DNA of 64,000 nt. It comes from an uncultured Actinomycetes bacterium (lineage in GTDB: Bacteria > Actinomycetota > Thermoleophilia > UBA2241). The number at the start of each line of letters is the position of its first letter. Position 1 is the stretch's first letter. This document shows positions 15,744-58,210 of the stretch, in pieces. The translations under genes and the position numbers were made by a program. The notes beneath the pieces are model-generated. The model was not told the origin of the DNA. It ran no database searches and saw only the letters and a list, made by a program, of their open reading frames with translations. The DNA lies in contig CAWJRV010000005.1 in the NCBI GenBank assembly GCA_963845355.1, positions 80,495 through 144,494 of the forward strand, in the 5' to 3' direction.

Positions 15744-15974
15744 ATGAACCTCGGCCGCGTGCTGATCGCCGCCTTCATGGTGGCGATCTTCCTTGGCCCC
15801 AGGCGCTGGATGACCTGGGCGTCCGGGTTGCGCGAGAGGGTCCGGGTGGTCAGGGCGGTGCTGCGCGCGCGCCGCGCGCCGGGCGCCGGCGGAACCCTGC
15901 CGGGCCCCAGCGAGCCGCCGCCAACCCCCGATGAGCCGCCGCCAGGCGCCGACGCACCCATGCCGGGGGGCTAG
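15744..15974 (+). CDS. Hypothetical small single-pass membrane protein
   Basis: AAAGGAG RBS 7 nt upstream of the ATG. One hydrophobic helix, VLIAAFMVAIFLG. 76 aa. Placed convergently against the permease operon. Confidence 0.3.
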   Translation: MNLGRVLIAAFMVAIFLGPRRWMTWASGLRERVRVVRAVLRARRAPGAGGTLPGPSEPPPTPDEPPPGADAPMPGG

Positions 15975-17422
15975 AGCCTGGGGTCGCGCTCGCGCCGCCG
16001 CTCTTCGCCTTCCATGCCGTACGGCTCGGTCGGCGCCCCTTCATTCAAGACGAAGCCGCCCAGCGGCACAGCGACGTCGGCGGCCAGGAGCGGCTGCGCG
16101 GCGTAGGTGTCGTAGCCGGCGGTGTCCTCGCGGCTGCGCAGACGGGGGTCGAGGATCTCGTCGAAGGCCGTGCCCATGAAGGTGAAGGCCAGCACGACGA
16201 AGACGATGGCGATGCCCGGCGGCAGGATGTACCACCAGGCCGGCAGGGTGGCGGCGCCCGAGGACCAGGCGTTGTGCAGCATGGTGCCCCAGCTGAAATT
16301 CAGCGGGTCGCCCAGCCCCAGGAACGAGAGCTCGGTCTCGGCGGTGATCGCTTCGGCCACCACCAGGATGGTGTTGGCGAAGATCAGCGGGAAGACGTTG
16401 GGCAGTACGTGCTTGTTCATGATGTGCAGGTCGCTCGAGCCGATGGCCTTGGCGCGCTCTATGAAGGGCAGCTCGCGCACGCGCAGGGCATCGGCGCGCA
16501 CCACGCGGGCGGTGCCCGGCCAGCTCGTCACCCCGATGATGACGATCACGATGACGTAGTTGTGGCCGAAGGCCGCCGCCAGGACCATGGCGAAGGGCAG
16601 CCAGGGGATCACGAGGAAGGCGTCGGTGATGCGCATGAAGACCTCGCCCGGCCAGCCGCCGAAATAGCCGGCGCCGATACCGATGCTCGCGCCGAGAACG
16701 GTCGACACGACCGTCGCCATGAGGCCCACCACGAGCGAGATACGGGCGCTCCAGATGAACTCGGCCAGGATCGAGCGCCCCATCTCGTCGGTGCCCATGA
16801 GGTGGTAGTAGGCCGGCTTTGGCGGCTGGAAGGGTCTGCCGATCCCGGCGCCGGGGGCCAGCAGGGCGTGGTTTGCAAGGAACGGCGCGAGCAGCGCGAT
16901 CGCCACGAACGCCACGATGATCCACAGGCCGATCATGCCCTGGCGGTTCGAGCGGTAGAGCCGCCAGGTGCGGCGCGTATTACGCACGACGAGCTCGGCG
17001 CGCTCGGGGTGCGACTGCGCCCACATCCACACACAGGCCGCGGCCAGGACCACCACCACGGTCTGGCACAGCCAGGTGTAGTAGCCGGTACGGTTGCTGA
17101 GGCTGAACCCACCCGGGCTGAGAAGGCCGCCGTTCACGAGCCCCCAGACGACGAGCGCAAGACCGGTCGCCATCAGGGTGAGGGGGTAGCCGCGCGAGGC
17201 GGCGCGGCCGAACAGGAGCGCCAGACCCCAGGCCACGACCGCGAGGCCGGCGAGGAGCAGGAACGGTGGCGGGTAATTGCCGATCGACGGCGAGAAGAAG
17301 CCCTTGACGATCGCCACGAGGCCGCTCGACAGCGGGATGGTCTTTGGGTACTTGATGAGCGTGACGGCCAGCCAGACGACCGGCGTCCAGGCGACGATCC
17401 AGCGCTTCAGGCGGCGCGGCAT
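15971..17422 (-). CDS. ABC peptide/nickel transporter permease, DppC/OppC-like, with N-terminal membrane extension
   Basis: BPD_transp_1 core with the EAA-like loop …ERAKAIGSSDLHIMNKHVLPN… and a DppC-type C terminus. Confidence 0.85.
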   Translation of the reverse strand: MPRRLKRWIVAWTPVVWLAVTLIKYPKTIPLSSGLVAIVKGFFSPSIGNYPPPFLLLAGLAVVAWGLALLFGRAASRGYPLTLMATGLALVVWGLVNGGLLSPGGFSLSNRTGYYTWLCQTVVVVLAAACVWMWAQSHPERAELVVRNTRRTWRLYRSNRQGMIGLWIIVAFVAIALLAPFLANHALLAPGAGIGRPFQPPKPAYYHLMGTDEMGRSILAEFIWSARISLVVGLMATVVSTVLGASIGIGAGYFGGWPGEVFMRITDAFLVIPWLPFAMVLAAAFGHNYVIVIVIIGVTSWPGTARVVRADALRVRELPFIERAKAIGSSDLHIMNKHVLPNVFPLIFANTILVVAEAITAETELSFLGLGDPLNFSWGTMLHNAWSSGAATLPAWWYILPPGIAIVFVVLAFTFMGTAFDEILDPRLRSREDTAGYDTYAAQPLLAADVAVPLGGFVLNEGAPTEPYGMEGEERRRERDPRL

Positions 17423-18411
17423 CAGGCGTTCACCCGCGGGTCGATGTAGTACATCATGATGTCGGCGATCAGGTTGGCGACGATCACGGCCACGCTGCCC
17501 AGCAGAAAGACGGCCTGCATCACGGGGTAGTCGTGAGCGTCCATCGACTGGTACGAGAGTAGTCCGATCCCCGGCCAGTTGAAGACGCTCTCAATGAGGA
17601 TCGCGCCCGAGACGATGAACCCCAGGTTCATCATGACGAGGCTCACCGTGGGCAGCATGGCGTTGGGCACGACGTGGTGCCAAAGCACGTTATTGCTGCT
17701 CAGGCCCTTCGCCTGCGCCGTGAGGACGTAGTCTTCTTTCATCACGCCGGTGAGCGAGCTGCGCATGATCAGGTGGTACTCGCCGTAGTAGCCCAGGGCG
17801 AACATGATGACCGGCAGCGTGATGTGGTAGAGCAGGGTCTCCAGGGTGGTGAAGTCGAGCGGGATCGGGCCCCACATCGCGAAGTGTGCCATGGGGGTCG
17901 ACTCGCGGCCTACCGGAAACCAGCCCAGCGCGACCGAGAAGAACATGATCGCCAGCAGGCACTGCCAGAAGGTTGGCATGGCGTACATGACCATGCTCAC
18001 GTCGGTGCTCGCGGTGTCGAAGGGCTTGCCGCGCTTCCAGCCGGCGATCACGCCTTCGACCATGCCGATGACGGTCGCCAGCAGCGTGCCGAGGCCGCAG
18101 AGGATGATCGTCGGCCAGATGCGTTGGGCGACGATCTGGGTCACCGGCACCTTGAACGCGAACGAGTAGCCGAACCTGAGCCGGGCTGTGTCGGACCAGT
18201 AGTAGATGAACTGCTCCCACTTGGGCACGTTCAGGTGGAACGCCGCCTCCTGCTGGGCGATCGCGGCGGCGGAGACCTTGCCCTTGGGCAGCAGGAGCCT
18301 CGCCGGATTGCCCGGCATGATGCGGAACAGGAAGAAGTTGAACGAGGCGACGAGGACGATCGTCAGCAAGGCGTTGGCGATCTTGCGGATGAAGTAGGCG
18401 CGCTTGTTCAC
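17422..18411 (-). CDS. ABC peptide transporter permease, DppB/OppB-like
   Basis: N-terminal YFIRKIANALLTIVLVASFNFFLFRIMPG. EAA motif region LTAQAKGLSSNNVLWHHVVPNA. C-terminal MMYYIDPRV. Confidence 0.9.
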   Translation of the reverse strand: MNKRAYFIRKIANALLTIVLVASFNFFLFRIMPGNPARLLLPKGKVSAAAIAQQEAAFHLNVPKWEQFIYYWSDTARLRFGYSFAFKVPVTQIVAQRIWPTIILCGLGTLLATVIGMVEGVIAGWKRGKPFDTASTDVSMVMYAMPTFWQCLLAIMFFSVALGWFPVGRESTPMAHFAMWGPIPLDFTTLETLLYHITLPVIMFALGYYGEYHLIMRSSLTGVMKEDYVLTAQAKGLSSNNVLWHHVVPNAMLPTVSLVMMNLGFIVSGAILIESVFNWPGIGLLSYQSMDAHDYPVMQAVFLLGSVAVIVANLIADIMMYYIDPRVNA

Positions 18412-18542
18412 GGCTCAGACGGCGACGCGGCGCGTGACATGGCGGCGGCGGGCCTGCGTCGCCGCCCTTCGCCGCAATACGTATGCCAAAGCCCATCTCG
18501 TCTCGTCCCCCCTCCCGGGCCAACATATAGGAGGCCTTTGCG

Positions 18543-18598
18543 GTGGCAAGCTTGGCATGAAGCGTCTGCGGCGGGTGGCAAGCCTGGAATGAAGACGC
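18543..18598. promoter_or_regulatory. Direct repeat GGTGGCAAGCyTGGmATGAAG, two copies 32 bp apart, in the divergent permease/SBP intergenic region
   Basis: Read directly from the sequence. Candidate operator sites. Confidence 0.3.
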
Positions 18599-18758
18599 GC
18601 AGGGGCCCGTGACCGGTGGCGGGTCCGGCGCCGGCGACGTCTGTCGACGCAATGAGCGTATAGAATCGCCTCGAGTCGGGGAGCGGCGGGGCGCGACGAA
18701 GACAGGGCGGAGGCGGCGGCGGTGGCCGCGCGACGCCGACCGAGCACGGGGGGCACTG

Positions 18759-20611
18759 ATGAGACGCACACGCATGTCGTGGCGTCGAGCGGTCCTGCTG
18801 GCGACGACGGTGATCCTCGTGGCCGGTCTCGCTGTGGGGTATCACTCGGCCCTCGCTTCGAGCGCCAGCCCGTCGCCGACCAGCGGCAAGGTCATCCTCC
18901 GGCTCGGCTGGACGGCCGGCCCGGACAACCTCAACCCGTTCATCGGCTCGAACTCGCAGGCGTTCACCGTCTGGTACATGAACTACGACACGCTCGTGGG
19001 TCTGAACACCACCGACGTGGCGCCAAACAAAACGACGGGGCTCGCCACCGACTGGACGACCAGCGCCCGACGGCAAGACCTGGACCTTCACCATCCGCAA
19101 GGACGCCAAGTGGCAGGACGGCCTGCCGCTGACCGCCGCCGACGTCGCCTGGACGTACAACTACATCGTCAAGAACAACATCGCCAACTGGACGAGCTAC
19201 ACGACGAACATCGTGCAAAGCGACGGCGCTCGACGCCTATACGGTGCGCATCGACTGCTCCGTCGCCTCAGCCGGCCCTGCTCGCCAACGTGGCCGAGGT
19301 GCCCATCCTGCCCGAGCACATCTGGGCGAAGATCCCGGCCAAGACGGCCATCCACACCTTCCCGAACACGCCGCCGATCATCGGCAGCGGGCCGTTCCAG
19401 TGCGTCCAGTGGAAGAAGTCGAACTACCTCGTGATGCAGGCCAACAAGAGCTACTGGCGCGGCGCCCCGCACGTCGACGACGATCGTCTTCGAGGAGTAC
19501 ACCAACGCCGACACAATGGGCGAGGACATGAAGTCGGGCGCCATCGACGGCTGCACCGGCCTGCTCCAGGCGCAGATGCAGATGCTCGTCGCACATGCCC
19601 GGCGTTGAAGTCAGGCCGGTGTACGTCAACGGCTACGACGAGCTCGGCTTCAACTGCTACACCGGCGGTCCGTCGCTGGGCAACCCCGTCCTCAAGGACT
19701 GGCGGTTCCGCCAGGCGCTGCAGTGGGCGGTCGACAAGAACAAGCTCTGCGCGATCGCCTACGGCGGCATGGCCAAGCCGGCCGACACGATCATCACCGC
19801 CAACTACTACCGCAACCCCGACTGGCACTGGACGCCGCCGGCCGACCAGGCCTACAGCTTCAACCTGGCCAAGGCCTCGCAGATGCTGACCGCCGCCGGC
19901 TACAAGCTGGTCAACGGCGTGCGCCTGAACAAGCAGGGCAAGCCGATCTCGCTGCGGCTCTACGCCCGCAGCAGCTACCAGCAGAGCATCACTTGCGGCG
20001 AGTTCATCACCGGCTGGTTCCGCCAGCTCGGCCTCAAGGTCACCCTCTCGACGCTCGACGACGGCGCGCTCGAGAGCGACCTGTACAACACGGTCAAGGG
20101 CGTCTTCACGCCCAACTACGACATGTACGAGTGGGGCTGGTACAACGACGTCGATCCCGGCCCGTCCTCAGCCTACTTCACGACCGCGCAGATCAACAAC
20201 GAGAGCGACTGCGCCTGGTCGGATCCGCTCTACGACGCCACCTACAAGGCGCAGTCGACCGAGATGGACCTCGCCAAGCGGCTGCAGCTCGTCTACAAGT
20301 GCCAGCAGATCATCTACCAGCAGTCGCCCTATATCCCGCTGGCCTACTCCGACGACACCGAGGCCTGGAACACCTCGCGGTGGACCGGCTGGGTGCAGAT
20401 GCCCGCCAACGTGGGCAACGTCGTCGTGCCGCCGTACGGTTATGAGACATACTTCTCCGTCAGGCCCAAGACGGGCAGCGGCGGGACCCCGGCGGGCCTG
20501 ATCGGGGTGCTCGTCGTCGCCGGCATAGTGGTGGTCGCGGTCGTGGGCGGCGGGCTCTATACGCTCATCAAGCGGCGCACGCGCGCGTCCGACGTGCCGC
20601 TCGAGGAGTGA
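18759..20611 (+). pseudogene. Family-5 solute-binding protein (DppA/OppA-like) with C-terminal TM anchor, disrupted by at least four frameshifts
   Basis: Signal peptide + VILRLGWTAGPDNLNPFIGSNSQAFTVWYMNYDTLVG. The reading frame jumps near 19065, 19215, 19490 and 19600. The C-terminal 338 aa is intact and ends in a TM helix (LIGVLVVAGIVVVAVVGGGLY). Confidence 0.75.
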
Positions 20612-20798
20612 GCCGCGGAGCACGCGGGCGGGCGGAGCGGGTCACGGTCGGTCGCTTGCTGATGAAGCGCAAACGCGGCGGTGCTACTATGAGCTACGGT
20701 GAAACCGTCCGTCACGGTCGATCACGCCGAAAGCCGTCGCGGTGAATCACTCTGAACGTCCGTTGCGCGCAAGCGCGAGGTCCGATTGGGGGCACTGT

Positions 20799-22185
20799 AT
20801 GAAGCGGTTTCTGTTGGGACTCTCGTGTACCGCGCTGGTCGTGGCGGGGGCGGCCGTCTGGGCGGGCGCGGCGGCGGCCGCGACCAGACCGGCCACCCAC
20901 ACCGACCCGCTCGTGACCACGCTTCCGGCCGCGGGCGTGCGCCCGGCTCTCGGCGACCGTCCGTTCCACGGCACGACGGTCACCTCGTCTAACTGGTCGG
21001 GCTACGACGACTCGACCGACGGTCCGTTCACCACGGTCACGGCCACCTGGGTTCAGCCGCGCGTGCGCACGACCGGCGCGACCTTCTCCGATGCCGCCTT
21101 CTGGGTGGGCCTCGACGGCGACAACTCCGACACGGTCGAGCAGATCGGCACCGAAGGCTATAGCGAGGGCGTCGCCGGCTACGACGCCTGGTATGAGATG
21201 TATCCGCTCTACCCGGTGACCATCGACATGGCCGATCCACGCCGGCGACGTGCTCACCGGCACCGTCACCTTCGCCGCGCCGGCGAGCCTTCACGCTGAC
21301 CCTCGTCAACCACACGAGGGGTAAGTCGTACACCGACCGGACAGATCATGGGCATCCCGCCCGCAGCTCGCGTCGGCCGAGGCGATCGCCGAGGCGCCGA
21401 TCGCGACAGCAGCGGCGACGTCGTGGCGTCGTCCGACTTCGGCATCGTCAGGTTCAGCGGTTGCACGTTCGACAACCAGCCGATCGGCACCTTCGACTGG
21501 AACCAGCATCGACATGACCTCCGAGTACAGCGGCGGCCTCGTGGCGCAGACCTCGGCACTCGGCGCCGACGGCGACGAGCTTCAGCGGTGACGACCGACG
21601 TGACACCGACCGACACGACGGTGCTCGGGCGCCGGCTCGGCTGGCACGACAAGGCGGTGAGGCTGCACCTCCGGGCCATCGACAACCGCGGTGGTCTGGG
21701 CGTGGCCTACACGCGAGTACTCGCTCGACGACGGCGCGACCTGGGCGAACGGGCGACCGCGTCACGGTGCCCGCCCCGGCCGATCACAGCGCCGACGGCG
21801 TCGACAAAGTCGTCTATCGCTCGGCCGACAAGGCGGGCAACATCGAAGCAAAGCGCGTCAGCCGTGCTCATCGACACGCGCCGGCCACGCCCGTCGCCAA
21901 ATGGCCGGCGTCCGCCGTCGCGGCGCTCGCACCGCCTTGCGCTTCTACGTGGCGACCCGCGCCCGGGCAGCCCCACGGCGACCGTCACGATCCGCATCCA
22001 CAACGCCCACGGCGCGCTCGTCAAGAAGGTCGTGCTGCCCGGCGGTCAGGGTCGACACCGTCGGTGGACTACGACTTCACCTGCTGGCTGCCCAAGGGCG
22101 CCTACAGGTTCGCCGTCGCCGCCACCGACGCGGCCGGCAACGCGCGCAGACGGCGCGGCCGCCAACACGCTGGTGGTGCGCTGAT
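20799..22185 (+). pseudogene. Peptidase-G1 (eqolisin/scytalidoglutamic peptidase)-like secreted protein with Ig-like C-terminal module, multiply frameshifted paralog of 41045..42610
   Basis: Signal peptide. SNWSGY, AAFWVGLDGD, VEQIGTEGY and YDAWYEMYP motifs. Downstream pieces in three frames: GVAYTEYSLDDGATW…DHSADG…YRSADKAGN…DPRPGSPTATVTIRIHNAHGALVKKVV…ATDAAGN. Confidence 0.7.
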
Positions 22186-22263
22186 GCGCCGCCGCACCGA
22201 GGGCGTCCGGCGAAATCGTCGACGCCGTTCTGAGTCCCGGTTCCGTCGTAAGGGGGTCTGCAC

Positions 22264-25037
22264 ATGAAGCGCGCCTGGCTCGTTGCCTGCATCGCCGCTG
22301 GCCGCGTGGCGCCTGGCGGCCGTTGGGGCCCCTCCGGCTCAGGCCCTCGTGCCCGACGGCGGGCACGGCTGGTTCTGGCAGATGCCGCAGCCCGCGACCG
22401 GTCTGAGCGACGTCACGTTCGCGCGCCGGGCAGTACTGGGCGGTCGGCGTGGGCGGAACCATCCTGCACAGCACCGACGGCGGCGCTCACCTGGGCGGCG
22501 CAGCCGACCGGCTCCGACGCCGACCTCTGGTCGGTCAGCTTCGCCGACGCCCAGCACGGCTGGGTCGGTCGGCGCACGGCGCGGGAACCGGCGACGCCTG
22601 ATCCTCGCCACCACCAACGGCGGCGCCGCCTGGACCGACGAGACGCCGGGCGGCCTGACCGATTGGCTCACCAACGCGAGCTTCGTCGACGCCGCACACG
22701 GCTGGATCGGCACCAACGACGGCAAGGTCCTCAAGACCAGCGACGGCGGCGGCACCTGGCAGACGCTGAAGCGTCGCCGCCGCCTACAAGGGCTACCTCA
22801 CGGTCGACTTCGTCGATGCCACGCACGGCTGGGCGGGCGGCACCAGCGGCCGCATCTGGACGACGGTCGACGGCGGCGCGACCTGGACGGCCCTCCCGCG
22901 CGGCTCTGACGGCCCGGACATGCGGTCGTCGTCCAGCTCGATTTCGTCGATCGCCGCGACGGTTGGGTGCTCGGCCAAGACACTATGGCGACTCCGTGGT
23001 CATGACGACCAACGACGGCGGGCGCTTCTGGCGCCCGGTACCGACTGGGGACCGTCCACGACCGGCATCTACGCCGCGAGCGCGGGCGACGTCTGGCTCG
23101 TCGGCCAGGACTGGATGGACTACGACGATTCTCAGGCTCCGACCATCTGAAGCACTCGAGTGACGGCGGGTTCACTCTGGAAGACGTCGACGATCAGCGC
23201 GCCGGCCATGCCCTACGCGATCGCGGCGGGCGGCGGTTCGGTCTGTGCCGTGGGCGACGGCATCCTCGTCTCCGGCGACGATGGGGCGACCTGGCAGTCG
23301 GGCAGCTCGGGCCAGCAGTACTGGTTCGCCGGAGCCGACGCGGTCTCGGCGACCGACGTGTGGGCGGTCGACTCCGCCGGCGCCCTGTTGCACAGCACCG
23401 ACGGCGTGCGCTTCGCCGAGCAGCCCGATCTGGTCCGGGGGGCGATCGCGCTCATGGGGGTCAGCTTCCCCAACGCCAGCGACGGCTGGGTGGTGGGAGC
23501 CAGCGACCAGTGGGGTGACGGCAGCGTGATCCTCCACACGAGCGACAGCGGCGCGACCTGGGGTCCGCAGCAGTCCAACCTGGGCGGCGAGCTCGACGGC
23601 GTCGATTTCATCGACGCGCACACCGGCTGGGCGATCAGCGACGACAACTCCGGGTGGAACGCGGGGGCCAACCTCACGATGCAGCACACGACCGACGGCG
23701 GCGTCACCTGGATCCCCAGTTCGTCGCCGGCAACACCGCGCTCAGCGCGGTCGACTTCGTCGACGCCTCGACGGGTTGGGCGGCCGGCGGTGTGTATTCG
23801 GAGGGCAATCCCGCGGCGGCGGTCTTCGCCTCGACCGACGGCGGCTTCACCTGGACCAGGGAGAAGCTGCCCAAGGGCGCTCCCGCCATCACCGGGCTGC
23901 AGTTCCTGAACAAAAGCGACGGCTGGGCCGTCGGCACGAGCTGGACGCTGGACGACGCCACCGACACCGCCACGTCGGATCAGGGCTGGGTGCTGCACAC
24001 CACCGACGGTGGCGCGACGTGGCAGCTCGTGTCCGATCTCGACGACAGCCTGGCCACCACGGTGCACTTCAGCGACTCGAGCAACGGCTGGGTCGGAGGC
24101 CTGAACGGCGTCTATGCCACCACCGACGGCGGCTCGACCTGGCAGCGTGTCGCCGCGGGCGACGGGGTCGAAGCCATCGCCGCCACCGACGCCCAGCACG
24201 TGTGGGCGTTCGGCGACGGCTTTCTCGTGTCGACGCTCGACTCGAACGGCGACTCCGCCGCTCCCGTGACCCTCGATCCACACAACGACTCCGTCTGGCG
24301 CAACAAGACGGTGACCATCGGCTTGCTGGCCAACGACGTCGGCGGCTCGGGCGTCGCCGGAACGCAGACCAGCCTCGACGGCGGACGCCTGGCAGCCCGG
24401 CGCGTCCATCGTTGTGCCGGCCTACGCGGACCACCACTTCGACGGCACGCACACGATCCTCTACCGCTCCGCCGACAACGCCGGAAACCAGGAGCAGACG
24501 GAGAGTCTGACGGTCGGCGTCGACACGCTGGGCCCTGCCTGCTCCGTCCCCCGCACGAGCGTCGTCGACGCCGGTAGCCGCGGGCCGCTGTTCTTTATGG
24601 CGACCGACGAGAACAGCGGGGTCAAAGAGGCGACGATCACGATCGTCGGGGCTCACGGTCGCGTGCTGCGCAGATTCGTCGAGCACGCGGGCGACTGGGG
24701 CGCCTCCCCGTCGCCCTCCTACTACTGGACGCGGTTCAACTGCACGCTGAAGCCCGGCACCTACCGCGTCGAGGTGCATGCCGACGACTGGGCGGGCAAC
24801 CGCCAGGTCACGGTGGGTCACGGTGTGCTGCGGGTGGTACGCCGCGGGGCTCCCGAGTTCTCGCCACCGTGGTGGCCATCCGGCTTGCCCTCCGAGTCCA
24901 TGGGTACCCGCCTGAACCACGGTCTGCGGCCGGCCTGGCTGTTGCGCCAGCCCGGCAGCCCGACCGTCGTGCACGCGGCGTCGCATCGCGGCGCCTGGAA
25001 GGCCCAGCACTGGCCGGAGGTCCGCGCGAAGCGCTAA
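22264..25037 (+). pseudogene. Ycf48/BNR-type beta-propeller secreted protein (possibly a double propeller) with the same C-terminal module, at least eight frameshifts
   Basis: Repeated blades of the form …HGW.VG..GTIL.TTDGGATW… spread over all three + frames. The C-terminal part reads …HTILYRSADNAGNQE…ATITIVGAHGRVLRRF…GTYRVEVHADDWAGN. Confidence 0.65.
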
Positions 25038-25219
25038 GGACTCGCAGGCGACATCGGCGGTCCGAGGCCGCCGATGTCGCCTGATCAGTCGACGCGAGGA
25101 TGCCTGCCGGGACGCCCACCCCCTAACGAAGTGCCCGCTTTGGCCGATGACTTGCAGGGAGATCGCACATCACCTGCGAGGTCCGCTCCTTTCGCGAGTG
25201 GCCCGGCCCGGAGACGGTC

Positions 25220-26554
25220 ATGAGATATTGCCCCAACTGCGAGCTCTCCATCGGTGAGACGGCGACGTTCTGCGCGACCTGTGGCGCGCGGGTGCCGAAT
25301 GTAGCCGCGACCCGGCAGTCACCCTCGCCGCCTGCGTCCGCCGCAGCGGTACCGGACGCGCCGCCGTCTGACTCCGTCAGCCCGGTCGCTCCACCGCCGG
25401 TGGCGGTCCTCATCTCCCCTCAGGGGGTGCTCCTGGCAGCTCCTCCCGTGGCGGCCGGCACTGCGCCGGTCGTGGCTGCGGCCGCGCCGGCAACGGCGTT
25501 TCCGGCCGCGCCGGCGACCGCGTTTCCGGCCGCGCCGGCCATGGCGTTTCCGGCCGCGTCGAGCAGGACGCCGGCGATGCCGACCGCGACGGGCGGTGCG
25601 ACCGCGATGCCGACCGCAACGGGCAGTGTGACCGCAGAGCCGCTTTTGCCACCGCCGCCGGCGCCCGCTTCCGAGGCGCCTCCAGCGCCGGCAGCCGAGC
25701 CCGCGCCGGTCGCTTGCAGGATCTGTGGACGCACGGCGTCCGCCGTCGAGAACGAGGGTGTGTGCCACGCGTGTCGGGCCGACCTGGACCTCTTTGTGGC
25801 GGCCGGCGCGTCGGAATCTGCCGGAGTGAGCCTCGCGGGCAACGTGTCGACCGGCGGTCGTCAACGCCTCACCGCAAGCAATGCGATCTACTCGGCGCTG
25901 GCCGACGACGACACGTGCCCCGAGTGCCGCGCCATGGATGGTCGCGAGACAAGCGACATCGCCGCCGCCGCAGGTTGGGCACCGAACCGGCAGTGCCGCA
26001 GCCCGCAAGGTTGCCGCTGCGCGGTCTTTTACGAGCACGAGAGCCTGGCCGCCGGCGAAGAGCCCGCCTTCATAGACTATGTCGCCGCTCATGGCCTGCA
26101 CGTCACGGCTCCCGCCGTGAGCGCCTTCCGCGGCGAGACGCACAGGCTCAGGCAGACCGCCGCTCACCTCGACGATGCCTCGCGGTCGCTCGCCGAGGCG
26201 CGCACGTTGGAGAAAGTCGACCCGCAACAGGCGGTCGCACGGTATCGTCGAGCTATCGACAGCCTCCTGGCCTGCGGCCAAGAGCCTCTCGACGAGCGCT
26301 GCGTCAGGCGCGATCTGCCCCTGGCGTTCAACCGGCTCACCCTGGTGCTCAAGGCTCTGGGCCGTCGCAGCGAGGCTCTCGACGAGATCGAGCGCGCGGT
26401 GGCAACGGGGATCCTCGAGCGCGATGACTGCGGCAGGAAGGCAGATCGGGACGCCCTCCTGAACCGCCGTCGACGGCTGCAAGAGGGCCTGACCGCGACC
26501 GACTCTGCCCCCCGCCACCGTCTGACCGCGACCGCCGCCGCCAGGCAGCGCTAG
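25220..26554 (+). CDS. Zinc-ribbon protein with Pro/Ala-rich repeat linker and a phage-Mu-F/SPP1-gp7-like Cys motif
   Basis: N-terminal double zinc ribbon YCPNCELSIGETATFCATCGARV. Tandem-repeat linker. Second ribbon CRICGRT…CHACR. Then TCPECRAMDGRETS…GWAPNRQCRSPQGCRCAVFYEHE, resembling the MuF C…C…dG…HPnCRC motif. Helical C terminus. Confidence 0.6.
   Translation: MRYCPNCELSIGETATFCATCGARVPNVAATRQSPSPPASAAAVPDAPPSDSVSPVAPPPVAVLISPQGVLLAAPPVAAGTAPVVAAAAPATAFPAAPATAFPAAPAMAFPAASSRTPAMPTATGGATAMPTATGSVTAEPLLPPPPAPASEAPPAPAAEPAPVACRICGRTASAVENEGVCHACRADLDLFVAAGASESAGVSLAGNVSTGGRQRLTASNAIYSALADDDTCPECRAMDGRETSDIAAAAGWAPNRQCRSPQGCRCAVFYEHESLAAGEEPAFIDYVAAHGLHVTAPAVSAFRGETHRLRQTAAHLDDASRSLAEARTLEKVDPQQAVARYRRAIDSLLACGQEPLDERCVRRDLPLAFNRLTLVLKALGRRSEALDEIERAVATGILERDDCGRKADRDALLNRRRRLQEGLTATDSAPRHRLTATAAARQR
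25484..25555. repeat. 3 x 24-bp in-frame tandem repeat encoding (APATAFPA)x3; adjacent 2 x 30-bp repeat at 25575..25634
   Basis: Units gcgccggcaacggcgtttccggcc / gcgccggcgaccgcgtttccggcc / gcgccggccatggcgtttccggcc. Confidence 0.8.
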
Positions 26555-33106: not shown

Positions 33107-35409
33107 ATGAAGCACGAATATGGCCATGAGACGAGCGCGGCGGAGCTGCGTGCGGGCGTGGTACCGGCTCCGACCGACACGTCGCGCGCGTCGCGGCGCG
33201 ACGCCGTCCCGACCTCGCTTCTACCCTCAAAGCTGGACTCGCCGAAGTTCCGTCTTGGGCTCGTGCCTCGGCGCGTGCTGGTCGACTCGCTCTGTCGTTC
33301 CGCCGCTCCCCTGGTGGTGCTGTCGGCCGCCGCCGGGTCCGGCAAGACAGCCGCCCTGCTCGAGTGGGTCGCCGCCGAGCGCCGGCCCGTCGCGTGGTTG
33401 CGTCTCGACGCGGCCGACAACGACCCGGTTGTGCTGCTCGTCGGCCTCACGGCGGCGCTCCAGCGTGTGACTCCACTCGACCCCGCGACGGGCGAGTGGC
33501 TGCGCGTGGCGGTGCCGCCGGTCTGGGAGCGGGTCGTGCCGGCTCTGGCGCGCCGCCGTCGCCGCCGCGCCGCCGTTCTTGCTGGTCTTAGACGATGCCC
33601 AGCAGCTCACGAACCCCGACTGCTGGCGGATGGTCGCCACGCTGCTCGACTGCCTGTCGCAGGGCAGTCAGGTCGCCGTCGTCCACGCGCGTCGACCCGC
33701 CGCTGCCGCTGGCGCGCCTGCGGGCGGCGGGGGCGCTGCCGTCGTGGGCGGGGAAGATCTGGCATTCGACCGCACCGAGGCCGAGCAGCTGATGGAAATG
33801 CTCGACGTGTCGTCTGCCATGGACGACCTCGACGCCGTGCTGCATGCGACCGAGGGCTGGGCGACGGGACTCTCGCTGGCGGCTCGGCCGTGCCCAGCCT
33901 TCCGGCCGACGAACGGGCGGCGGCGGTGCGCGGCGACCTGCGCGAGATCGCCGGCTATCTGCTCGGCGAGGTGTTCTCGAGGTCAGTCGCCCGACACCCA
34001 GGAGTTCCTCTTGCAGACGTCGGTGCTCGAGCGCCTCTCGGCGCCGCTGTGTCACGCCGTCACCGGACGCCGCGACGCCGCAGGCCGTGCTGGCCCGCCT
34101 CGCCGATGAGCACCTCTTCGTCACCGCCGAAGACGACAGCGACAGTGGTTTCGCTACCACCAGCTCTTCGGCGAGTTCCTGCGTGCCGAGCTCGCGCGGC
34201 GCGAACCCGACGCAGGCGCCGCGCTGCGCCGGAAAGCCGGCGAGTGGTACCTGGAGAAGGGCGACGTGCCCGCGGCATCGTCCATCTTCTCGGGCCGGCG
34301 ACGACGAGCGCGCCGCCGAGATCGCGGCGACGCTGGACGCGCTACTGGGCGAGCGGTCAATGCGAGACGGTGCGCCGCATGCTGCAGACGCTTCAGCCGA
34401 CGAACAGATCCAGGGAGCCGTGCGCCCTGACCCTGACGGCGGGCTGGGTGTATTCGGCGATCGGCGACCGCGAGCGGCGCGGCGCTGGACGGCCGTGCCG
34501 CCTGCCGCGTCGCGGGTCGACGACTCGCCGTCGCCTGACGGCGCCGTGTCGCTGCGCTCCTCGCAGGCCCTGCTGCGCGCCGCCGCTGGCGCCCGACGGC
34601 GTGCCGCCATGCGCAGCGACGCGGAGCTTGCCGCTCAGCTCGAGAACCGCTCCGGCTCGAACTGGTATGCCGAGGCCCAGTTCGATCTGGGCTGTGCCCT
34701 CTGGCTGACCGGCGTCGAGACGCGCGCCGAGCGCCACCTCGCAGGTCGCCGCCCGCGAAGGGGGCGGCGTGAACTCGGCATCGAGATCGCCGCGCTCGGC
34801 TTTCTCGGCGCTGATGGCCGCCGAGCAGGGCGAGTGGGAGAGGCGCGCCTGCACGAACGCCGCGCGGCCGACGAGCGCCTCGCGGAACTCGGCCTCGTGA
34901 GCCACCGCCGCGCGCTGCCGCTCCTGCTCGCTCAGGCGCGGCTGCTGGCGCGCGCCGGCGACCCGGGTCTGGCGCGCACGTGGCCTGGGATCGCCGCGAC
35001 CTCGACGACATGGTGCCGATCCCCTGGCTGACCGTGCTCGCCGGCGTGGTCGTCGGCGAATGCCTCTCGAGGCCGGCGACGTCGAGGTGGCCGATGCCTG
35101 GGGTCGGCGGGCCCTCGGCGCGCGCTCACCGAGGGCGGCGACGTCGGCGTGCTCGAGGCCAGGACCCAGCGTCTGCGCCTCGGGCTCAAGGGCCGCCGCG
35201 TCCGAAGCCGATCACGCCGGCCGAGCTGCGCGTGCTCGAGCTGCTGCCGACGCACCTGTCGTCGGGCCAGATGGCCGAACAGCTCTGCGTGTCGACCAAC
35301 ACCGTCAAGACCCACGCAAGAGCCTCTATCGCAAGCTCGGCGTCGGCTCGCGGGCCGAGGCGGTCGAGGAGGCCCGCGCTCTGGGGTCTGCTCGCGGGGC
35401 CGTGACGTG
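33107..35409 (+). pseudogene. MalT-type large ATP-binding LuxR-family regulator, broken by multiple frameshifts
   Basis: N-terminal P-loop VLSAAAGSGKTAALLEWV. Helical middle region spread over three frames. C-terminal LuxR HTH ELRVLELLPTHLSSGQMAEQLCVSTNTVKTHAKSLYRKLGV, recovered only after a frame change. Confidence 0.7.
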
Positions 35410-36303: not shown

Positions 36304-36900
36304 TCAGGCCGAGCGGCCGAGCTCGCCCTTGAGGAAGTAGTCGAGGGCCGGTCCGGCCCAGGCGGCGATCGTCTCGTGGTCGGCGCTCGCCAGCGGTTCC
36401 TGGCAGAGCACGTATCGACTCAGGGCCAGGCCCAGCAGCTCCGAGACGGCCAGGCGCGCCCGCGGGCAGGCGTCGGTGGTCCGCGCGCCGGCGGCGTAGG
36501 GCGCGATCAGCGCAGCGATCGTGTGGGCCTCGATGGCGGCCGCCAGGCGACTGTCGGTGCCCGCGGCCGTGCAGAGGCAGCGCAGGATGACGGCGTTGTC
36601 GGCCGTCTCCCAGAACTGCAGGTAGCGAGTCACGATCTCGGCTCCCGACCACGCGAGCGCCGGCCGCTGCGGTATGCGCGGCGGCAGCGGGCGCAGGGCG
36701 GACAGGACGAGCTGCGCCTTCGTCGGATAGCAGCGCCGCACGTCGGCCGGCGCGACGCCTGCCAGGCGCGCGACGAAGGCGTAGGTCACCTGGTCGTACG
36801 GGCGCGCCCGCAGCGCGTCGGGCAGCACTCCACGACGGCCCGGCGAACCTCATCGTCGCTCGACTTGTCGATGACGTGTGATGTGTTCGTGTCGCTCGGC
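36304..36900 (-). pseudogene. TetR-family regulator with a probable N-terminal frameshift
   Basis: HTH LPDALRARPYDQVTYAFVARLAGVAPADVRRCYPTKAQLV begins at the very start of the ORF. The expected preceding helix (…DEVRRAVVE…) is encoded in another frame just upstream. Confidence 0.5.
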
Positions 36901-37219
36901 GTGTACGCGTCGCGCGCCACGAGGGCGACGCTCGGCACGAGGGCAACGCTCGGCGCGGCCGGCCTAAAAGTCGACACGGATCCAGCTCGACCAGCGCGCC
37001 AGGCGAGACTCGAGACGCTTGCCCACGCCGTTCACGCTCGGCGGGGCGCCGGCGGTCGCGGGCGTCGCAGCAGCCGTGACCGAGCGTCTGTACGCGGCCG
37101 CGTTCGGCGTCGGCGTGCCGCGCGCCTCGGAGGCTCCGGGGACAAGTTGTCGGCGGCGCTGCCGGCGCAGGTCGTGAGGGGTTCGTCGCGCAGGTCGGAC
37201 ACGGTATCCTCCTTGTCTT

Positions 37220-39475
37220 CTAGGAGCTCGAGCTGGTAGGGCTGGTCAGGTCGTAGACGGCGATCCCGCCGACCGTTTGCGAGGTGAAATGAGCCTCGAC
37301 CCACGTCGAGATGGCGCTCATCGAGGTGCTGCCGCTCGACGCCTGGCCGCCGGTTCCCGCAGGGCCCGTGGCGCTGGGCGCCGTGCCGTCGTTCGCGCCG
37401 CCGGTGGCGCGGACAACACCCGATCCGCTCGTGCCGCCGGCGATGAAGTAGTGCACCTTCCCGGCGCCGACCAGCGCCTCGAACTCGCGCCAGCGTCGGG
37501 TACGGGTCGCTGCCGTTGAAACCGCCGAGGCTCATGACCGGATCGTCGGTGGCGAGCTGATAGCCGGCCGCCGACTGGGCGCCCACGGTGGCCGCGACCC
37601 ACCTGAAGCGGCCGGCGTTCTGCTCGAGCAGGCGGACCAGCGCGGCGCTCGGGCGGCTCGCGTTGAGCAATCCTCCGGCGCCGCCGGCCGCGCCAAAGCC
37701 TGCGCTGCCGGCCGTGCCGACGCCTGCACCGCCCGGTCCACCGTTCGCCGTGCCCTGCGGCGCGCCGTTGAAGCTCGGCGGGGCGCCACCGGTGCCACCG
37801 GTGCCACCGGTGCCGTGCGAACCGCCGGCTGCGTTCGAACCGCTCGGCGCATTCGAGCCGCCGGCTCCGTTCGCACCACCCGGTGCGCCGCTGCCGAACG
37901 CCGTCACGCCTCGACCGCCGCCGGGGGCGAATCTGCCGTTGGCGCCGCCGGCCACCGTCGGTCCCGCGGAGGGCAGCGAGCCGGAATGAGCGGTCGCCGC
38001 CGTCTGCAGGGAGTACAGCGCGGGGCCCGCCATGGCGAGCACGCAGCCTGCGCCGGCGAGCGCCAGAGCTGTTCGCCTGCCCAGGCGGCCGCCGACGATG
38101 AGCAGGGCGGCCGTCGCGAGGCCGCCCACCAGGACCACCGGACGCAGCCATGGGTGCCAGGTCGGCGAGCGGTCGAGCAGGACGAACGACCAGAAGGCGG
38201 TCGCGGCGATGATGCCGCGAAAGGCACAGTCGCCAGGCGATCTTCGAGCGCCGCGCCCAGAGCGCGGTCGCGCCGATGCCGACGAGCGCGCCGATCGCCG
38301 GCGCCAGGGCGACCGCGTAGTACTCGTGGATGATGCCCTGCGCGAAGCTGAAGACGACCGCGGTGACGAGCAGCGCAGCCGCCCCACAGCAGCACGGCGG
38401 CGCGGGTGCGGTCGGTGCGCGGCGCGCGGCAGCGTGAGCCACGAGCAGCGCGACGCCGAACGACGAGCGCGGCCGGCAGCAGCCAGGCGATCTGGCCGCC
38501 CCAGCTCGACGTGAACAGGCGGTCCCAGCCGGTCGCTGCCCCAGGCTGCCGGCCTGGCCGCGCGCCGCCGGGCACGACGCTGCCGGTCTCGTTGCCGGTG
38601 AGGCGGCCCGAAGCCGTTGTAGCCGAAGATCAGCTCGAGGACGCTGTTGGTCTGCGAGCCGCCGATGTAGGGGCGGCTCGCGGCCGGCCAGAGCTGCACG
38701 ATGGCGACCCACCAGCCGGCCGAGACGAGCAGGGCGACGGCCGGCCAGCGCGAGCTGCCGACAGCCGGCGCAGCGGGCTCGTCGGCGCGGCGATGCAGGT
38801 AGACGAGCGCGAAGGCCGGCACGACGAGGAACGCCTGCAGCATCTTGGTGATGAAGCCGAAGCCGACGAGCGACGCCGGCCAGCACGAGCCAGCGGCCGC
38901 CGGCCGTTCTCGAGCGCGCGGGTCGACGGCGTAGGCGCCGAGCGTGAGCAGCAGGACGAGCAGAGCGTCGGGGTTGTTGAAGCGGAACATCAGCGTCGCC
39001 ACCGGCGTGAGCGCGAGCACGAGCGCCGGCGAGCAGGCCGGCGGCCGGGCCGAACCAGCGCCGCACCGCGACGTAGAGCACGCCGACCGTGGCGACGCCC
39101 TCGAGCGCCTGCGGCACGAGGATGCTCCACGAGTTGACGCCGAAGATGCGCGCCGAGATCTCCATGACCCACAGCGACGGCCGGCGGCTTGTCGACGGTG
39201 ATGAAGTTGGCGGCGTCGGAGGAGCCGAAGAAGAACGCCTTCCAGCTCTGCGGTGCCGGCCTGCACGGCCGCCGAGTAGAAGGCGTTGGCCCAGCCGGAC
39301 CGGCCGAGACCGACAGGTAGAGCAGGGCGGTGCCGACCAGCAGAGCAAGCAGCGCCGGCCGCGCCCAGGCCGGATCTTCGGGCCGGCCGCGCCACAGGCT
39401 GCGCCACAGCCGGCGCAGGCGTGACGGGCGGCCCGCGCCGGCCGTGCGCGGTGGCGTTGCGGCGGCGCGGGTCAC
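37220..39475 (-). pseudogene. GT39/PMT-like (ArnT-type) membrane glycosyltransferase with Gly/Ala-rich C-terminal region, at least six frameshifts
   Basis: Pieces in two or three frames: SGWANAFYSAAVQAGT-QSWKAFFFGSSDAANFITVDKPPA-SLWVMEISARIFGVNSWSILVPQALEGVATVGVLYVAVRRWFGP… C-terminal …FRWVAATVGAQSAAGYQLATDDPVMSLGGFNGSDPYPTLA…VHYFIAGG. Confidence 0.7.
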
Positions 39476-39529
39476 GCTCCGCCCTGGGCGGGTCGGCGAA
39501 GGTATCGTCGGTCGTGGTCACGGGTGTGG

Positions 39530-40961
39530 TCACAGGTCCTCCTGCTCGAAACGTGGGGAACGGCGCGGAAACAGCCAGACGCGAAACAGCGCGAAGCGCA
39601 GCAGCGTCGCCGTCACGTTGGCGCGCACCAGCACGGCGAGCTCGAGCGCGCGCGCCGCGGCGGGTCTGAGCGCTGCAGGATGAACAGGCTGCCGCTGGTC
39701 ACCGCGAGGCCAAGGGCGAACACGACGAGGCCCTGGCCCTGGTGTCGCAGCCGCCTCGCCGGGCCGCGCACGCCGAACGTGAGGCGCCGGTTCGCGGCGG
39801 TGTTGGCGATCGCCGTCACGAGCAGCGCCAGGGCGTTGGCCCACTGGGCCGGACATGATCTCGCGCGCCAGCAGGTAGAGCGAGCAGGTAGGCCAGCGTG
39901 CTGACCACCCCGATCAAGCCGAATCGCAGGAGCTGACCGGCCAGCTTCGCCGGCGCTGCTCCGCCGGCGCCGGAGCGCCAGTCGCGCGGGTCGCGCGGGT
40001 CGCGCGGGGCCGGCAAGGCCAGCTTGCCGCTCCTGAGCGTACGACTGAGCCGGGCGATGCCCTTGAGGTCGGCCACCGCCGTCGCGACGATGTCGACGCG
40101 CGAGTCGGGGTCGTCGACCCAGTCGACCGGGACCTCGTGGATGCGCAGGCCGGCGCGCTCGGCCAGCACCAGCAGCTCGGTGTCGAAGAACCAGCCGGTG
40201 TCCTCGACCAGAGGCAGGAGCTCCGCGCGCCCGGTCGGCGCGGATCGCCTTGAAGCCGCACTGAGCGTCGGAGAAGCGGGCGCCGAGCGCCGCATGCACG
40301 AGCAGGTTGTAGCAGCGTGAGATCGAACTCGCGCTTGGCGCCGCGCACCACGAACGACGTGCGTGAGAGCCGCGTGCCGATGGCGAGGTCGGAGTGTCCC
40401 GAAAGCAGCGGCGCGACCAGGGGTAAGCAGGGCGGCCAGGTCGGTCGAGAGGTCGACGTCCATGTAGGCGAGCACGGCGGCGTCGCTTGCCGCCCACACG
40501 GTATGCAACGCTCGTCCGCGGCCCTTGGCGTCGAGATGGACGGCGCGCACGCCGGGCAGCGCATCGGCCAGTGACTGGGCGATGGGCCAGGTGCCGTCGG
40601 TGCTCGCGTTGTCGGCGATGGTGATGCGAAAGGTGAACGGCAGGTTCCGCGAGAGGTAGTCGTGCAAGCGAGTCACGCCTCGGGCCAGATCTCTCTCCTC
40701 GTTGAACACGGGCACCACCATGTCGACCGCCGGGGCCGGCGCCGACGCCGGCTTTGCCGCCGGAGCGTGGCCCTCGCCGCGAGGGGTGAGCGGCCGGGAG
40801 AGGAAGGCTGCCCCGGAACGTCGCGCGTCGCGGGGTGCCCTTGCCGTGTCGGGTGAGGATGCCGTCGTCATGGCAGTCAAGGTATCCGCCCGCCCTGAGG
40901 CCTCCCTGAAGCCCGGCTGGGAGGTTCCTGTGACGACGGCGGACTCCAACGGGGCTCTCAT
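39530..40961 (-). pseudogene. GT2 polyprenyl-phosphate-sugar synthase (Dpm1/Ppm1-like) fused to GtrA-like domain, frameshifted
   Basis: VVPVFNEERDL…ITIADNASTDGT…LDAKGRGRALHTVWAASDAAVLAYMDVDLSTDL…, with the continuation in another frame. GtrA-like C terminus LAGQLLRFGLIGVVSTLAYL…ANTAANRRLTF…, again in another frame. Confidence 0.65.
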
Positions 40962-41044
40962 TTGCCGCGCCCCGACCGCGACGACTACACTGATAGGCCG
41001 TCAAGGGCGAGAGCGGGTGCGAGAGCGCTCGGGTCCGCTTCTCG

Positions 41045-55468: not shown

Positions 55469-56658
55469 CGGTTTTTCTCGAGTCGCTGCGCCTGGCGTTC
55501 TCGAGCCTGCGCGCCAATCCGCTGCGCGCGGTGCTGACCATTCTGGGGATCGTCATCGGAGTGGCCGCGGTGGTCGCGCTCACCTCCATAGGCAGCGGCT
55601 CGACACGAGCGGTCGAGAACCGCTTCAACGCCTTCGGCACCGACACGATCACTGTCCAGACCAGCCAGTTCTCCTCAAGCGCCGCGCCGATATCGGCCGG
55701 TGATGTGGCCGCCATCGACGCCACTCCAGGAGTCAAGGCGACCGTCACCTCTGTGAACACGAACGCCACTGTGGCGCTCGGCACGACCAGTGCCACCGAG
55801 ACGATCAGCGGCACGGCGCCGCAGATCGTGGCGATCGACCACCTCACGATCGAGGCCGGCACCTTCTTCAGCGCCTTCGACGCGAGCCACAGCCTGCCGG
55901 TCGCGGTGCTGGGCAACACGGTGGCCGGCGACCTTGACATCTCACCGTTGCGCGCGGTGGGCCAGACGATCGATGTCGGTGGCGTGCAGTTCAAGGTGAT
56001 CGGCGTGCTGGCTGCGCAGGGCGGTGTCGGGTTCGCCTCGGTCGACTCCAGCGTACTGGTGCCACTGGGCGCGATCGAGGGCCGCCTGGTCGCCTTCAGG
56101 CCCGACATCTCGCAGGTCCGCGTACAGGCCGAGCCGGGCGCGGTCGGCACCTTTCAGGCGGCCGTCGAGACCACCCTGCGCACGCAGCACGACCTGACCA
56201 GCAGCGAGCAGGACGACTTTCAGATCATAAACGCGAGCTCCATCGCCTCGGCGGTCTCGTCGTCGACCAAGACCCTCACCCGCCTGATGGCCGCCATCGC
56301 CGCGATCAGCCTGGTGGTGGGCGGTATCGGCGTGGCCAACGTGATGCTGGTCACGGTGCGCGAGCGCACCCGTGAGATCGGCGTGCGGCGCGCTGTGGGC
56401 GCCACCCGGCGCGACATCGTCGTGCAGTTTCTCGTGTACGCCCTCATCACGAGCATCATCGGTGGCATCCTTGGCCTGGGCGTGGGCATAGCCGGCGCGT
56501 ATATCGGCGGTTCGGCCCTGAGCGTGTCACCGGTGTTCTCGGTGGCGACGGTCAGCCTGGCGCTGGTGGTCGCCGCGGCGGTCGGCATCCTGGCCGGCAT
56601 CGGTCCGGCCGTGCAGGCCGCATCGGTAGAGCCCACGGCGGCGCTGCGCTACGAGTGA
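55465..56658 (+). CDS. MacB/FtsX-family ABC transporter permease
   Basis: N-terminal TM + periplasmic MacB_PCD-like domain + C-terminal FtsX 3-TM bundle. Confidence 0.85.
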   Translation: MTVFLESLRLAFSSLRANPLRAVLTILGIVIGVAAVVALTSIGSGSTRAVENRFNAFGTDTITVQTSQFSSSAAPISAGDVAAIDATPGVKATVTSVNTNATVALGTTSATETISGTAPQIVAIDHLTIEAGTFFSAFDASHSLPVAVLGNTVAGDLDISPLRAVGQTIDVGGVQFKVIGVLAAQGGVGFASVDSSVLVPLGAIEGRLVAFRPDISQVRVQAEPGAVGTFQAAVETTLRTQHDLTSSEQDDFQIINASSIASAVSSSTKTLTRLMAAIAAISLVVGGIGVANVMLVTVRERTREIGVRRAVGATRRDIVVQFLVYALITSIIGGILGLGVGIAGAYIGGSALSVSPVFSVATVSLALVVAAAVGILAGIGPAVQAASVEPTAALRYE

Positions 56659-58153: not shown

Positions 58154-58210
58154 CCGGGCCGCGCCGACGCGGTCAGAGGCTCCGCGCAAGAGACAAAAGA
58201 GACGACCTCG

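Follow-up and report, generated by a model that had tools for sequence, protein, structure and literature searches.

Multiply frameshifted G1 peptidase and YCF48-related propeller genes in a Thermoleophilia contig are most probably intact genes obscured by sequencing or assembly errors

The analyzed window comprises 64,000 nucleotides from an uncultured bacterium of the Actinomycetota (Thermoleophilia). Two adjacent genes in it, a G1 glutamic peptidase gene and a gene for a YCF48-related BNR propeller, are preceded by genes for a substrate-binding protein and two ABC permeases (Table 1). Profile matches identified the domain types in the pair as Peptidase_A4 (MEROPS G1), PSII_BNR/YCF48-like and Big_13. 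The coding signal of both genes is spread across three reading frames, as seen in the GC3 frame plot, in the three-frame translations and in tblastn searches with the in-window paralogues. This bears out the original prediction that the two genes are heavily frameshifted.

Table 1. Genes and indel patches of the window discussed in the text
Feature	Position	Strand	Remarks
Two ABC permease genes	15971-18411	-	Members of the conserved cluster; intact, 0 frame changes
SBP_bac_5 (Opp/Dpp-type) substrate-binding protein gene	18759-20611	+	Directly upstream of the G1 gene; 5 frame changes
G1 (Peptidase_A4) glutamic peptidase gene	20799-22184	+	N-terminal signal-like segment, C-terminal OmpL47-type barrel/Big_13 module; 17 frame changes
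YCF48-related BNR beta-propeller gene	22264-25037	+	C-terminal OmpL47-type barrel/Big_13 module; 12 frame changes
Dense indel patch	21234-23177		27 of 29 frame changes in ~1.95 kb (~1.4%)
MalT-like regulator gene	33126-35405	+	759 aa in L004; ~30 one-base frame changes, no in-frame stop
Further patch	36304-41004	-	TetR, PMT_2 and GT2-GtrA genes
TetR gene	36304-36948	-	Probably split
PMT_2/YkcB-like glycosyltransferase gene	37032-39533	-	Split
GT2-GtrA gene	39613-41004	-	Split
G1 + Big_13 paralogue	41045-42610	+	Intact; ~69% DNA identity to 20985-22184
YCF48-like propeller + Big_13 paralogue	60586-62211	+	Intact; shorter (541 aa)

The in-frame N-terminal fragment of the G1 gene scored 55.8 bits against Pfam PF01828 (Peptidase_A4, cut-off 22.3), and NCBIfam barrel_OmpL47 matched the C-terminal module. 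The gene product aligned to both solved fungal enzymes of MEROPS G1, aspergilloglutamic peptidase (1Y43; 1y43_B, E = 5.7e-12) and scytalidoglutamic peptidase (1S2B; 1s2b_A, E = 1e-7). The position of the catalytic Gln is kept, the Q of VEQIGTE aligning with the heavy-chain residue Q24 of 1Y43. A candidate catalytic Glu lies in AEAIAEAP, which adjoins a frameshift junction where the HMMER alignment is ambiguous; this motif may be the counterpart of the fungal AEWIVEDF. Unlike the fungal enzymes, the product is bacterial and carries an OmpL47-type barrel/Big_13 module at its C terminus, and its gene shares a cluster with those of a propeller protein and a peptide-type ABC transporter. The propeller gene product resembles Ycf48/HCF136 and BNR/Sortilin-type propellers in its repeated PSII_BNR (PF14870) and BNR/Asp-box matches; in our reading it comprises two regions, each the size of a propeller, and a barrel/Ig module. 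It differs from Ycf48 in its length of ~925 aa and in its occurrence in a non-photosynthetic actinobacterium. The NCBIfam Ycf48 equivalog (PRK13684, cut-off 326 bits) was missed by an intact orthologue (P0001, 118.5 bits) as well as by the in-window paralogue (132.1 bits), and the product is YCF48-related, not Ycf48.

Frame changes were counted by aligning the intact orthologous proteins of the sister lineage L003 to the window DNA in a frameshift-aware manner. Frame correction from strictly private alignment columns alone was inadequate, and a frameshift-aware dynamic-programming alignment was used instead. The G1 gene contained 17 one-base frame changes, all within 21234-22145. The propeller gene contained 12, of which ten lie at 22315-23177 and one each at ~23714 and ~24386. 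The original lower bounds of at least five and at least eight changes therefore hold but are underestimates. Four intact neighboring genes gave no frame change in the same alignment, so the counts are not an artifact of the method. Once the frames were followed, no in-frame stop was found in ~1,990 codons, and both genes aligned end to end with intact orthologues, which in the conserved cluster measure 444-456 aa for G1 and 924-927 aa for the propeller. Across 100% of its own length, the stitched propeller protein matched intact orthologues 919-935 aa long, and its stop at 25037 is in the same place as that of the orthologue. Amino acid identity to the L003 orthologues was 79.5% for G1 and 81.3% for the propeller. 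The earlier observation that translations in three frames yield nearly complete domains was confirmed; the fragments join into complete domains.

Both genes belong to a cluster of conserved order (permease, permease, SBP_bac_5, G1, propeller) that is found in related peat and soil Actinomycetota. The substrate-binding protein, G1 and propeller genes are intact and in the same order in five related assemblies (L003, L004/L006, L005, L007 and L011). In the window, the substrate-binding protein gene is broken as well, by five private +1 insertions at 19066-19588, and removal of these five bases restored an open reading frame of 615 aa, the length of the orthologues. Intact copies of the two domain types do exist elsewhere in the window, as had been predicted; measured from position 25037, where the frameshifted pair ends, they lie 16 kb and 35.5 kb away. 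The pair itself was taken in the original prediction for decayed paralogues or pseudogenes. This part was not supported: the two genes are syntenic orthologues of genes that are intact in every relative examined, not decayed copies, and they lack marks of neutral decay and share their damage with unrelated genes.

The damage goes with the contig rather than with particular genes. A second indel patch covers the unrelated MalT-like gene, which brings the count to 64 frame changes in four genes (5 in the substrate-binding protein gene, 17 in G1, 12 in the propeller gene and 30 in the MalT-like gene), while four genes lying between the damaged ones contained none. In both glycosyltransferase genes of the further patch, the Pfam domains are divided among overlapping open reading frames of differing frame: PMT_2 profile positions 7-57 fall in one and 53-129 in another, and the GT2 and GtrA domains are in different frames. 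The assignment of the TetR gene is based on a frame switch at ~36829 in a stranded 3-periodicity HMM, with only the C-terminal domain encoded in the open reading frame 36304-36828. Such patches make up ~14% of the window in all, and they split at least six and probably seven genes. A segment of the window at 56598-58706 was 100% identical to the independent contig L002, indicating that the clean parts of the window are accurate. GC content was higher in the patches (72.5 versus 69.4%, p = 1e-5). GC bias was rejected as the sole cause, as the patch in the substrate-binding protein gene has 64.8% GC and other equally GC-rich stretches are clean. Repeat-induced misassembly with the paralogues is unlikely, since these are only ~69% identical and share no long exact repeats.

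Within the pair, the dense patch takes in the 3' two-thirds of the G1 gene and continues across the intergenic spacer and through the propeller gene's 5' third. The first 435 bp of G1 (no event) and the last 1.85 kb of the propeller gene (two events) are nearly clean, and the clustering is significant inside each gene (p = 0.0017 for G1, p = 0.0005 for the propeller). Across the substrate-binding protein, G1 and propeller genes, 33 of the 35 indels private to the window lineage (94%) measure exactly 1 bp. These 1-bp events comprise 23 insertions and 10 deletions, and the full set 23 insertions versus 12 deletions. An identical base adjoins only ~9 of the 35. A homopolymer association, which the original prediction had raised for checking, was not found among these indels: a real homopolymer was affected once (C5 to C4 at 23714), and slippage in homopolymers was rejected from the sequence contexts of the indels.

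The original statement that the indels lie in otherwise well-conserved sequence is correct and was quantified in three ways. With substitutions polarized by three outgroups, the window lineage had accumulated 129 in the dense patch (0.0745 per site) and the intact L003 lineage 138 (0.0797 per site); hence no substitution excess over the L003 lineage was found in the patch. With the indels removed, dN/dS in the patch was 0.41 between the window and L003, compared with 0.42-0.50 for pairs of intact genes. At codons otherwise invariant, private amino acid changes numbered 15/284 in the window and 17/286, 32/301 and 23/292 in intact orthologues, with a range reaching 50/319, so that the window genes showed no extra change at invariant residues relative to these orthologues. 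Over the three codon positions, the window-specific substitutions in the patch were distributed as 35/43/51, more evenly than the 35/30/73 of the sister lineage; misalignment beside indels, substitution errors or a slight relaxation of selection could account for this.

These data bear on the possibility that the genes are genuine, very recent pseudogenes, that is, that the cluster of substrate-binding protein, G1 and propeller genes was inactivated in this lineage together with several other genes and that frameshifts then piled up. Such a history would agree with the slightly more even codon-position spread and with the plausible dispensability of all frameshifted genes (regulators, glycosyltransferases, a solute-binding protein and secreted proteins of hydrolase type); the permeases are among the genes left intact, and paralogues that might compensate are present in the window. 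The genes also resemble neutrally decaying bacterial pseudogenes (Danneels et al. 2018, PMC6054270) in combining many frameshifts with intact orthologues in relatives of >85% identity. In curated real pseudogenes, however, 131 of 396 deletions measure 1 nt, deletions outnumber insertions by 396 to 300, and a pseudogene carries 4.6 indels on average (PMC6054270). Their indel sizes follow a power law with an excess of deletions, and the window, with 94% 1-bp indels outside homopolymers and an excess of insertions, departs from that spectrum in deletion size (binomial, p = 5e-4) and in insertion excess (p = 6e-3). Unlike those pseudogenes, the window genes also combine their indels with an unchanged dN/dS, without nonsense codons or a substitution excess, and the indel cluster straddles two genes, large parts of which are almost untouched. 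Recent decay would have had to leave 29 indels in the pair and 64 in the four genes counted under these constraints, with no added change at invariant residues. Because the same 1-bp damage occurs in unrelated genes, marks of decay are missing and syntenic orthologues are intact, the pseudogene reading is unsupported, and we consider it very improbable.

The outcome that the original prediction had itself set against its own reading, intact genes and an assembly artifact, is the best-supported explanation. From the sequence comparisons, we estimate at roughly 90% the probability that the frame changes are sequencing or assembly errors in the assembled sequence and that the underlying genes are normal and working. 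The contig would most likely derive from noisy long reads (of the Nanopore or PacBio CLR type) or from a hybrid assembly whose gaps were filled with long reads. Over tracts of 0.5-4.4 kb, too few reads may have underlain the consensus, or polishing may have missed it, and such tracts would retain ~1-1.4% random single-base insertions and deletions. Beneath them would lie an intact, selected cluster that encodes an Opp/Dpp-type solute-binding protein with two ABC permeases and two secreted proteins, the G1 glutamic peptidase and the YCF48-like propeller.

Evidence for a technical origin came from a second contig. The orthologue of the substrate-binding protein gene in L021 carries nine private 1-bp, non-homopolymer indels, and the genes of L003, L020 and L004, the first two of which are short-read contigs, have no private 1-bp indels. 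L021, a 'contig_N' record of Flye style from related material, belongs to the ENA accession series of the Nanopore-only assembly MFD03323, and its naming and accession series suggest that it is Nanopore-only too. The MFD assemblies are Nanopore-only and were produced with Flye and Medaka (PMC12313526), and indel errors in long-read assemblies are documented to break up genes (PMC12007338, 'Kastor'). As in these reports (PMC12007338, PMC12313526), single-base indels in the window turn intact genes into apparent pseudogenes, and close references restore the open reading frames. Unlike those known errors, the damage in the window is strongly patchy (tracts of 0.5-4.4 kb at ~1.3% with clean sequence between them) and has no link to homopolymers. 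The spectrum fits a single read, very low coverage or PacBio CLR better than polished Nanopore R10. An excess of insertions outside homopolymers is not the textbook profile of the residual errors of polished Nanopore R10.

An independent same-strain copy of 18.7-25 kb was searched for in the protein database, in JGI metagenomes, in GTDB species representatives and by exact-product look-ups, and none was found. The stitched G1 and propeller proteins and the patch of the substrate-binding protein, used as protein queries, gave nothing above 80-95% identity over a useful length. Two DNA scans of JGI metagenomes returned relatives at 75-81% identity only, and the scan of GTDB species representatives relatives at no more than 86%. 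The exact-product look-ups gave no match for the permease, the downstream 444-aa gene, the paralogue or the C-terminal propeller fragment. Same-strain contigs were obtained only for a 442-aa gene at 56.8 kb, far from the frameshifted pair (L001, 99.5% identical; L002, 100%). The artifact is a strong inference rather than an observation.

A real, localized and indel-specific mutational process, such as error-prone gap-filling synthesis after repair that peppers tracts of 0.5-4 kb, was also considered. Low-fidelity, indel-prone synthesis would in principle leave marks of the kind found here: damage that is tract-like, patchy and blind to gene boundaries, with substitutions not raised. It would, however, require at least four tracts in 64 kb to be fixed without selection removing them, and the identical signature in the unrelated long-read contig L021, together with its absence from the short-read contigs, points to technology and not to biology. 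We know of no process that scatters random +1/-1 changes at ~1.3% along kilobases of DNA and leaves no substitutions, and we regard this explanation as less probable still than recent decay. Decoding of the shifts by programmed ribosomal frameshifting, transcriptional slippage or phase variation at repeats has a negligible probability: its sole point is that the pieces sum to a full-length protein, against which stand shifts that go in both directions and number 17 in one gene and 12 in the other, sites away from slippery heptamers, homopolymers and simple repeats, and the conservation of no site in any orthologue, all relatives having single open reading frames.

That the indels are nevertheless real, left by a tract-wise indel-only mutational process or carried by a population in which multiply frameshifted genes are fixed, is very unlikely. 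If they were, segments of 0.5-4 kb would have been struck so recently that no substitutions followed. The peptide-uptake/peptidase cluster, several regulators and glycosyltransferases would then be inactivated, and an unknown indel-only process would be implied; the evidence is strongly against this.

Among Thermoleophilia-like Actinomycetota of peat and soil, the SBP_bac_5, G1 peptidase and YCF48-like propeller genes form a conserved cluster subject to purifying selection, and we infer that its role is extracellular protein breakdown and peptide uptake. Errors in the contig are an ordinary finding, and their chief value is as a warning: pseudogene counts, signals of 'reductive evolution' and gene-family censuses taken from this and similar long-read metagenome contigs would be inflated.

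The window has a GC content of about 70%, and across gene 1 (G1 peptidase) and gene 2 (propeller) the third-position GC signal switches repeatedly among the three forward frames. With frame hopping in three-frame translations, both genes were readable from end to end. The single long in-frame piece of gene 1 matched PF01828 with 55.8 bits, and a Big_13/OmpL47-type barrel module forms the C-terminal end of both genes. Frame changes were counted by aligning the intact orthologous proteins of L003, a contig from a relative, to the window DNA with a dynamic-programming aligner permitting +1/-1 shifts. The G1 gene required 17 shifts and the propeller gene 12, at amino acid identities of 79.5 and 81.3%, and no stop codon lay along either path. 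Because four intact neighboring genes required 0 shifts with the same aligner, the frame changes are confirmed as real in the assembled sequence. The original prediction had recognized both genes as heavily frameshifted, and the damage is heavier than its estimates of at least five and at least eight changes.

Features discussed in the text (window positions)
Feature	Position	Content
Conserved cluster	15971-25037	permeases, SBP, G1, propeller
SBP gene	18759-20611	SBP_bac_5
Gene 1 (G1)	20799-22184	signal-like segment at start, then Peptidase_A4 (MEROPS G1) domain
Dense patch	21234-23177	clustered indels
Gene 2 (propeller)	22264-25037	PSII_BNR/BNR propeller repeats
Inverted repeat	25045-25083	39 bp, imperfect
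Downstream gene	25220-26554	444 aa
MalT-like regulator	33126-35405	
Glycosyltransferase segment	36304-41004	PMT_2/YkcB, GT2-GtrA, TetR
Intact paralogue	41045-42610	
Intact paralogue	60586-62211	
Match to L001, L002	56567-59201	same species
Match to L002	56598-58706	

The stitched proteins matched full-length proteins of ~920-930 and 444-460 aa, both in Thermoleophilia-like Actinomycetota MAGs and in soil or peat metagenomes. The gene order common to the relatives' contigs is permease, permease, SBP_bac_5 (615 aa), G1 peptidase, and propeller, and all cluster genes are intact in L003, L004/L006 (MFD03323 MAG), L005 (palsa_645 MAG), L007, and L011. L003, a k133-named contig taken to be a short-read assembly, is 98% identical to L005, and each is ~85% identical to the window. 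The intact paralogues that had been predicted elsewhere were located, with a DNA identity of only ~69%; they are old paralogues. Judged by sequence and order, gene 1 and gene 2 are instead assigned as orthologues of the relatives' intact genes and not as spare decayed copies, and the earlier reading as decayed paralogs is not supported.

The cluster, whose two ABC permeases lie on the minus strand, was also found in L020. Its hosts are Thermoleophilia-like Actinomycetota from peat and soil, represented by palsa_645 and Microflora Danica MAGs. L004 carries an additional PLD-like gene that separates SBP from G1. The cluster propeller has ~925 aa and shares its C-terminal OmpL47-type barrel/Big_13 module with the peptidase. 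Two 736-aa proteins on long contigs (P0190, P0191) both carry Peptidase_A4, one with PSII_BNR in the same product, which would be a genuine G1-propeller fusion or, alternatively, read-through from a frameshift in those assemblies. The inverted repeat, 8 bp past the propeller stop and 87% self-complementary (blastn), looks like a terminator hairpin. The product of the downstream gene has a CxxC motif resembling a zinc ribbon in its N-terminal part and a long repetitive stretch rich in Ala and Pro (AFPAAPAT-type repeats); its L004 homologue, at 324 aa, is shorter by 120 aa.

Of the 35 window-private indels in the three-way alignments, 33 have a length of exactly 1 bp, 23 as insertions and 10 as deletions; indels private to the relatives mostly had lengths in multiples of three in the same alignments. 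About 9 of the 35 adjoined an identical base and only 1 lay in a real homopolymer, so the homopolymer association raised for checking in the original prediction is absent. In gene 1 and gene 2 these events are concentrated in the dense patch, which spans the gene boundary; the first 435 bp of G1 are clean and just two events fall in the last 1.85 kb of the propeller gene (clustering p = 0.0017 and 0.0005). Curated bacterial pseudogenes (Danneels et al.) have a power-law indel size spectrum and ~4.6 indels each, with 396 deletions versus 300 insertions and 1-nt deletions making up only 131/396 (PMC6054270). The window spectrum differs from theirs (p = 5e-4 and 6e-3).

Substitutions in the dense patch were polarized with three outgroups, and 129 were assigned to the window lineage versus 138 to the intact sister lineage. 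With indels removed, the patch gave a dN/dS of 0.41 for window-L003 versus 0.42-0.50 for intact orthologue pairs; the indels thus do lie in otherwise well-conserved sequence, as had been claimed. At codons with one amino acid in the four other taxa compared (L003, L004, L011, L007), the window deviates in 15/284 cases in the patch, and the intact genes in 17/286, 32/301, 23/292, and 50/319. With seventeen genuine neutral indels in one gene, numerous additional substitutions and the occasional nonsense codon would be expected, and neither was found in G1. With dN/dS also unchanged and a spectrum unlike that of curated pseudogenes, genuine pseudogenization, even if very recent, is very improbable. 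Real mutagenesis of the tract producing indels only is less probable still.

Damage also extends beyond the two genes under study. The SBP gene, directly upstream of G1, carries five private one-base insertions, and a 615-aa ORF was regained once all five were deleted. The MalT-like regulator required ~30 shifts, without stops. In between, both permeases and six genes at 25-32 kb are undamaged. A stranded periodicity HMM detected repeated same-strand frame switches in the glycosyltransferase segment, where the Pfam domains of the PMT_2/YkcB glycosyltransferase and the GT2-GtrA protein are distributed over overlapping ORFs that differ in frame. The TetR gene is probably split too, given its frame switch in the HMM. 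AT skew is unusual at 38-40 kb (+0.25). GC content is modestly higher in the patches; this difference may be linked to coverage or polishing and is insufficient alone as an explanation. A further stretch is 100% identical to the independent contig L002. The same species occurs in Logan run ERR11594402 (100% identity over 2.1 kb) and in ENA ERZ19051573 'GROS21-1_SAMEA9560861' (99.5% identical, one in-frame 6-bp indel); in both public datasets it is represented solely by 2-2.6 kb contigs.

A positive control was provided by L021, an independent Flye-style contig from related material ('contig_97798', ENA assembly ERZ25039466, in the same accession series as the MFD03323 assembly ERZ25039509). 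Gene calls across its whole locus are broken up into 60-250 aa pieces, among them fragments of SBP_bac_5 and PSII_BNR. Its SBP orthologue shows the same 1-bp signature as the window, with 9 private 1-bp, non-homopolymer indels, compared with none in the short-read contigs L003 and L020. Indels that fragment genes are a documented problem of long-read assemblies (PMC12007338). Many SBP_bac_5 matches were only 150-420 aa long although the ENA contigs that carry them extend over 100-760 kb, which suggests frequent fragmentation of SBP genes in this clade's long-read metagenome assemblies. The best explanation, with a probability of roughly 0.9, is patchy, uncorrected long-read consensus error overlying intact, selected genes. 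Near-single-read coverage or CLR-type data would account better for the insertion excess and the missing homopolymer association than Nanopore data that are well covered and polished. No independent same-strain copy of 18.7-25 kb was found in the protein database, JGI metagenomes, GTDB species representatives, or exact-product look-ups.

The G1 catalytic Gln is conserved; the region of the catalytic Glu is present, with the residue ambiguous at a frameshift junction. The intact orthologue of the propeller (P0001) scored 118 bits, below the 326-bit cut-off for true Ycf48, and the propeller is therefore YCF48-related and not a true Ycf48. Among the cluster products are probably two secreted proteins, the G1 glutamic peptidase and the large YCF48-related propeller. 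Because both proteins share the C-terminal barrel/Ig module and their genes sit beside an Opp/Dpp-type ABC importer, the sequence suggests a role of the cluster in extracellular proteolysis coupled to peptide uptake.
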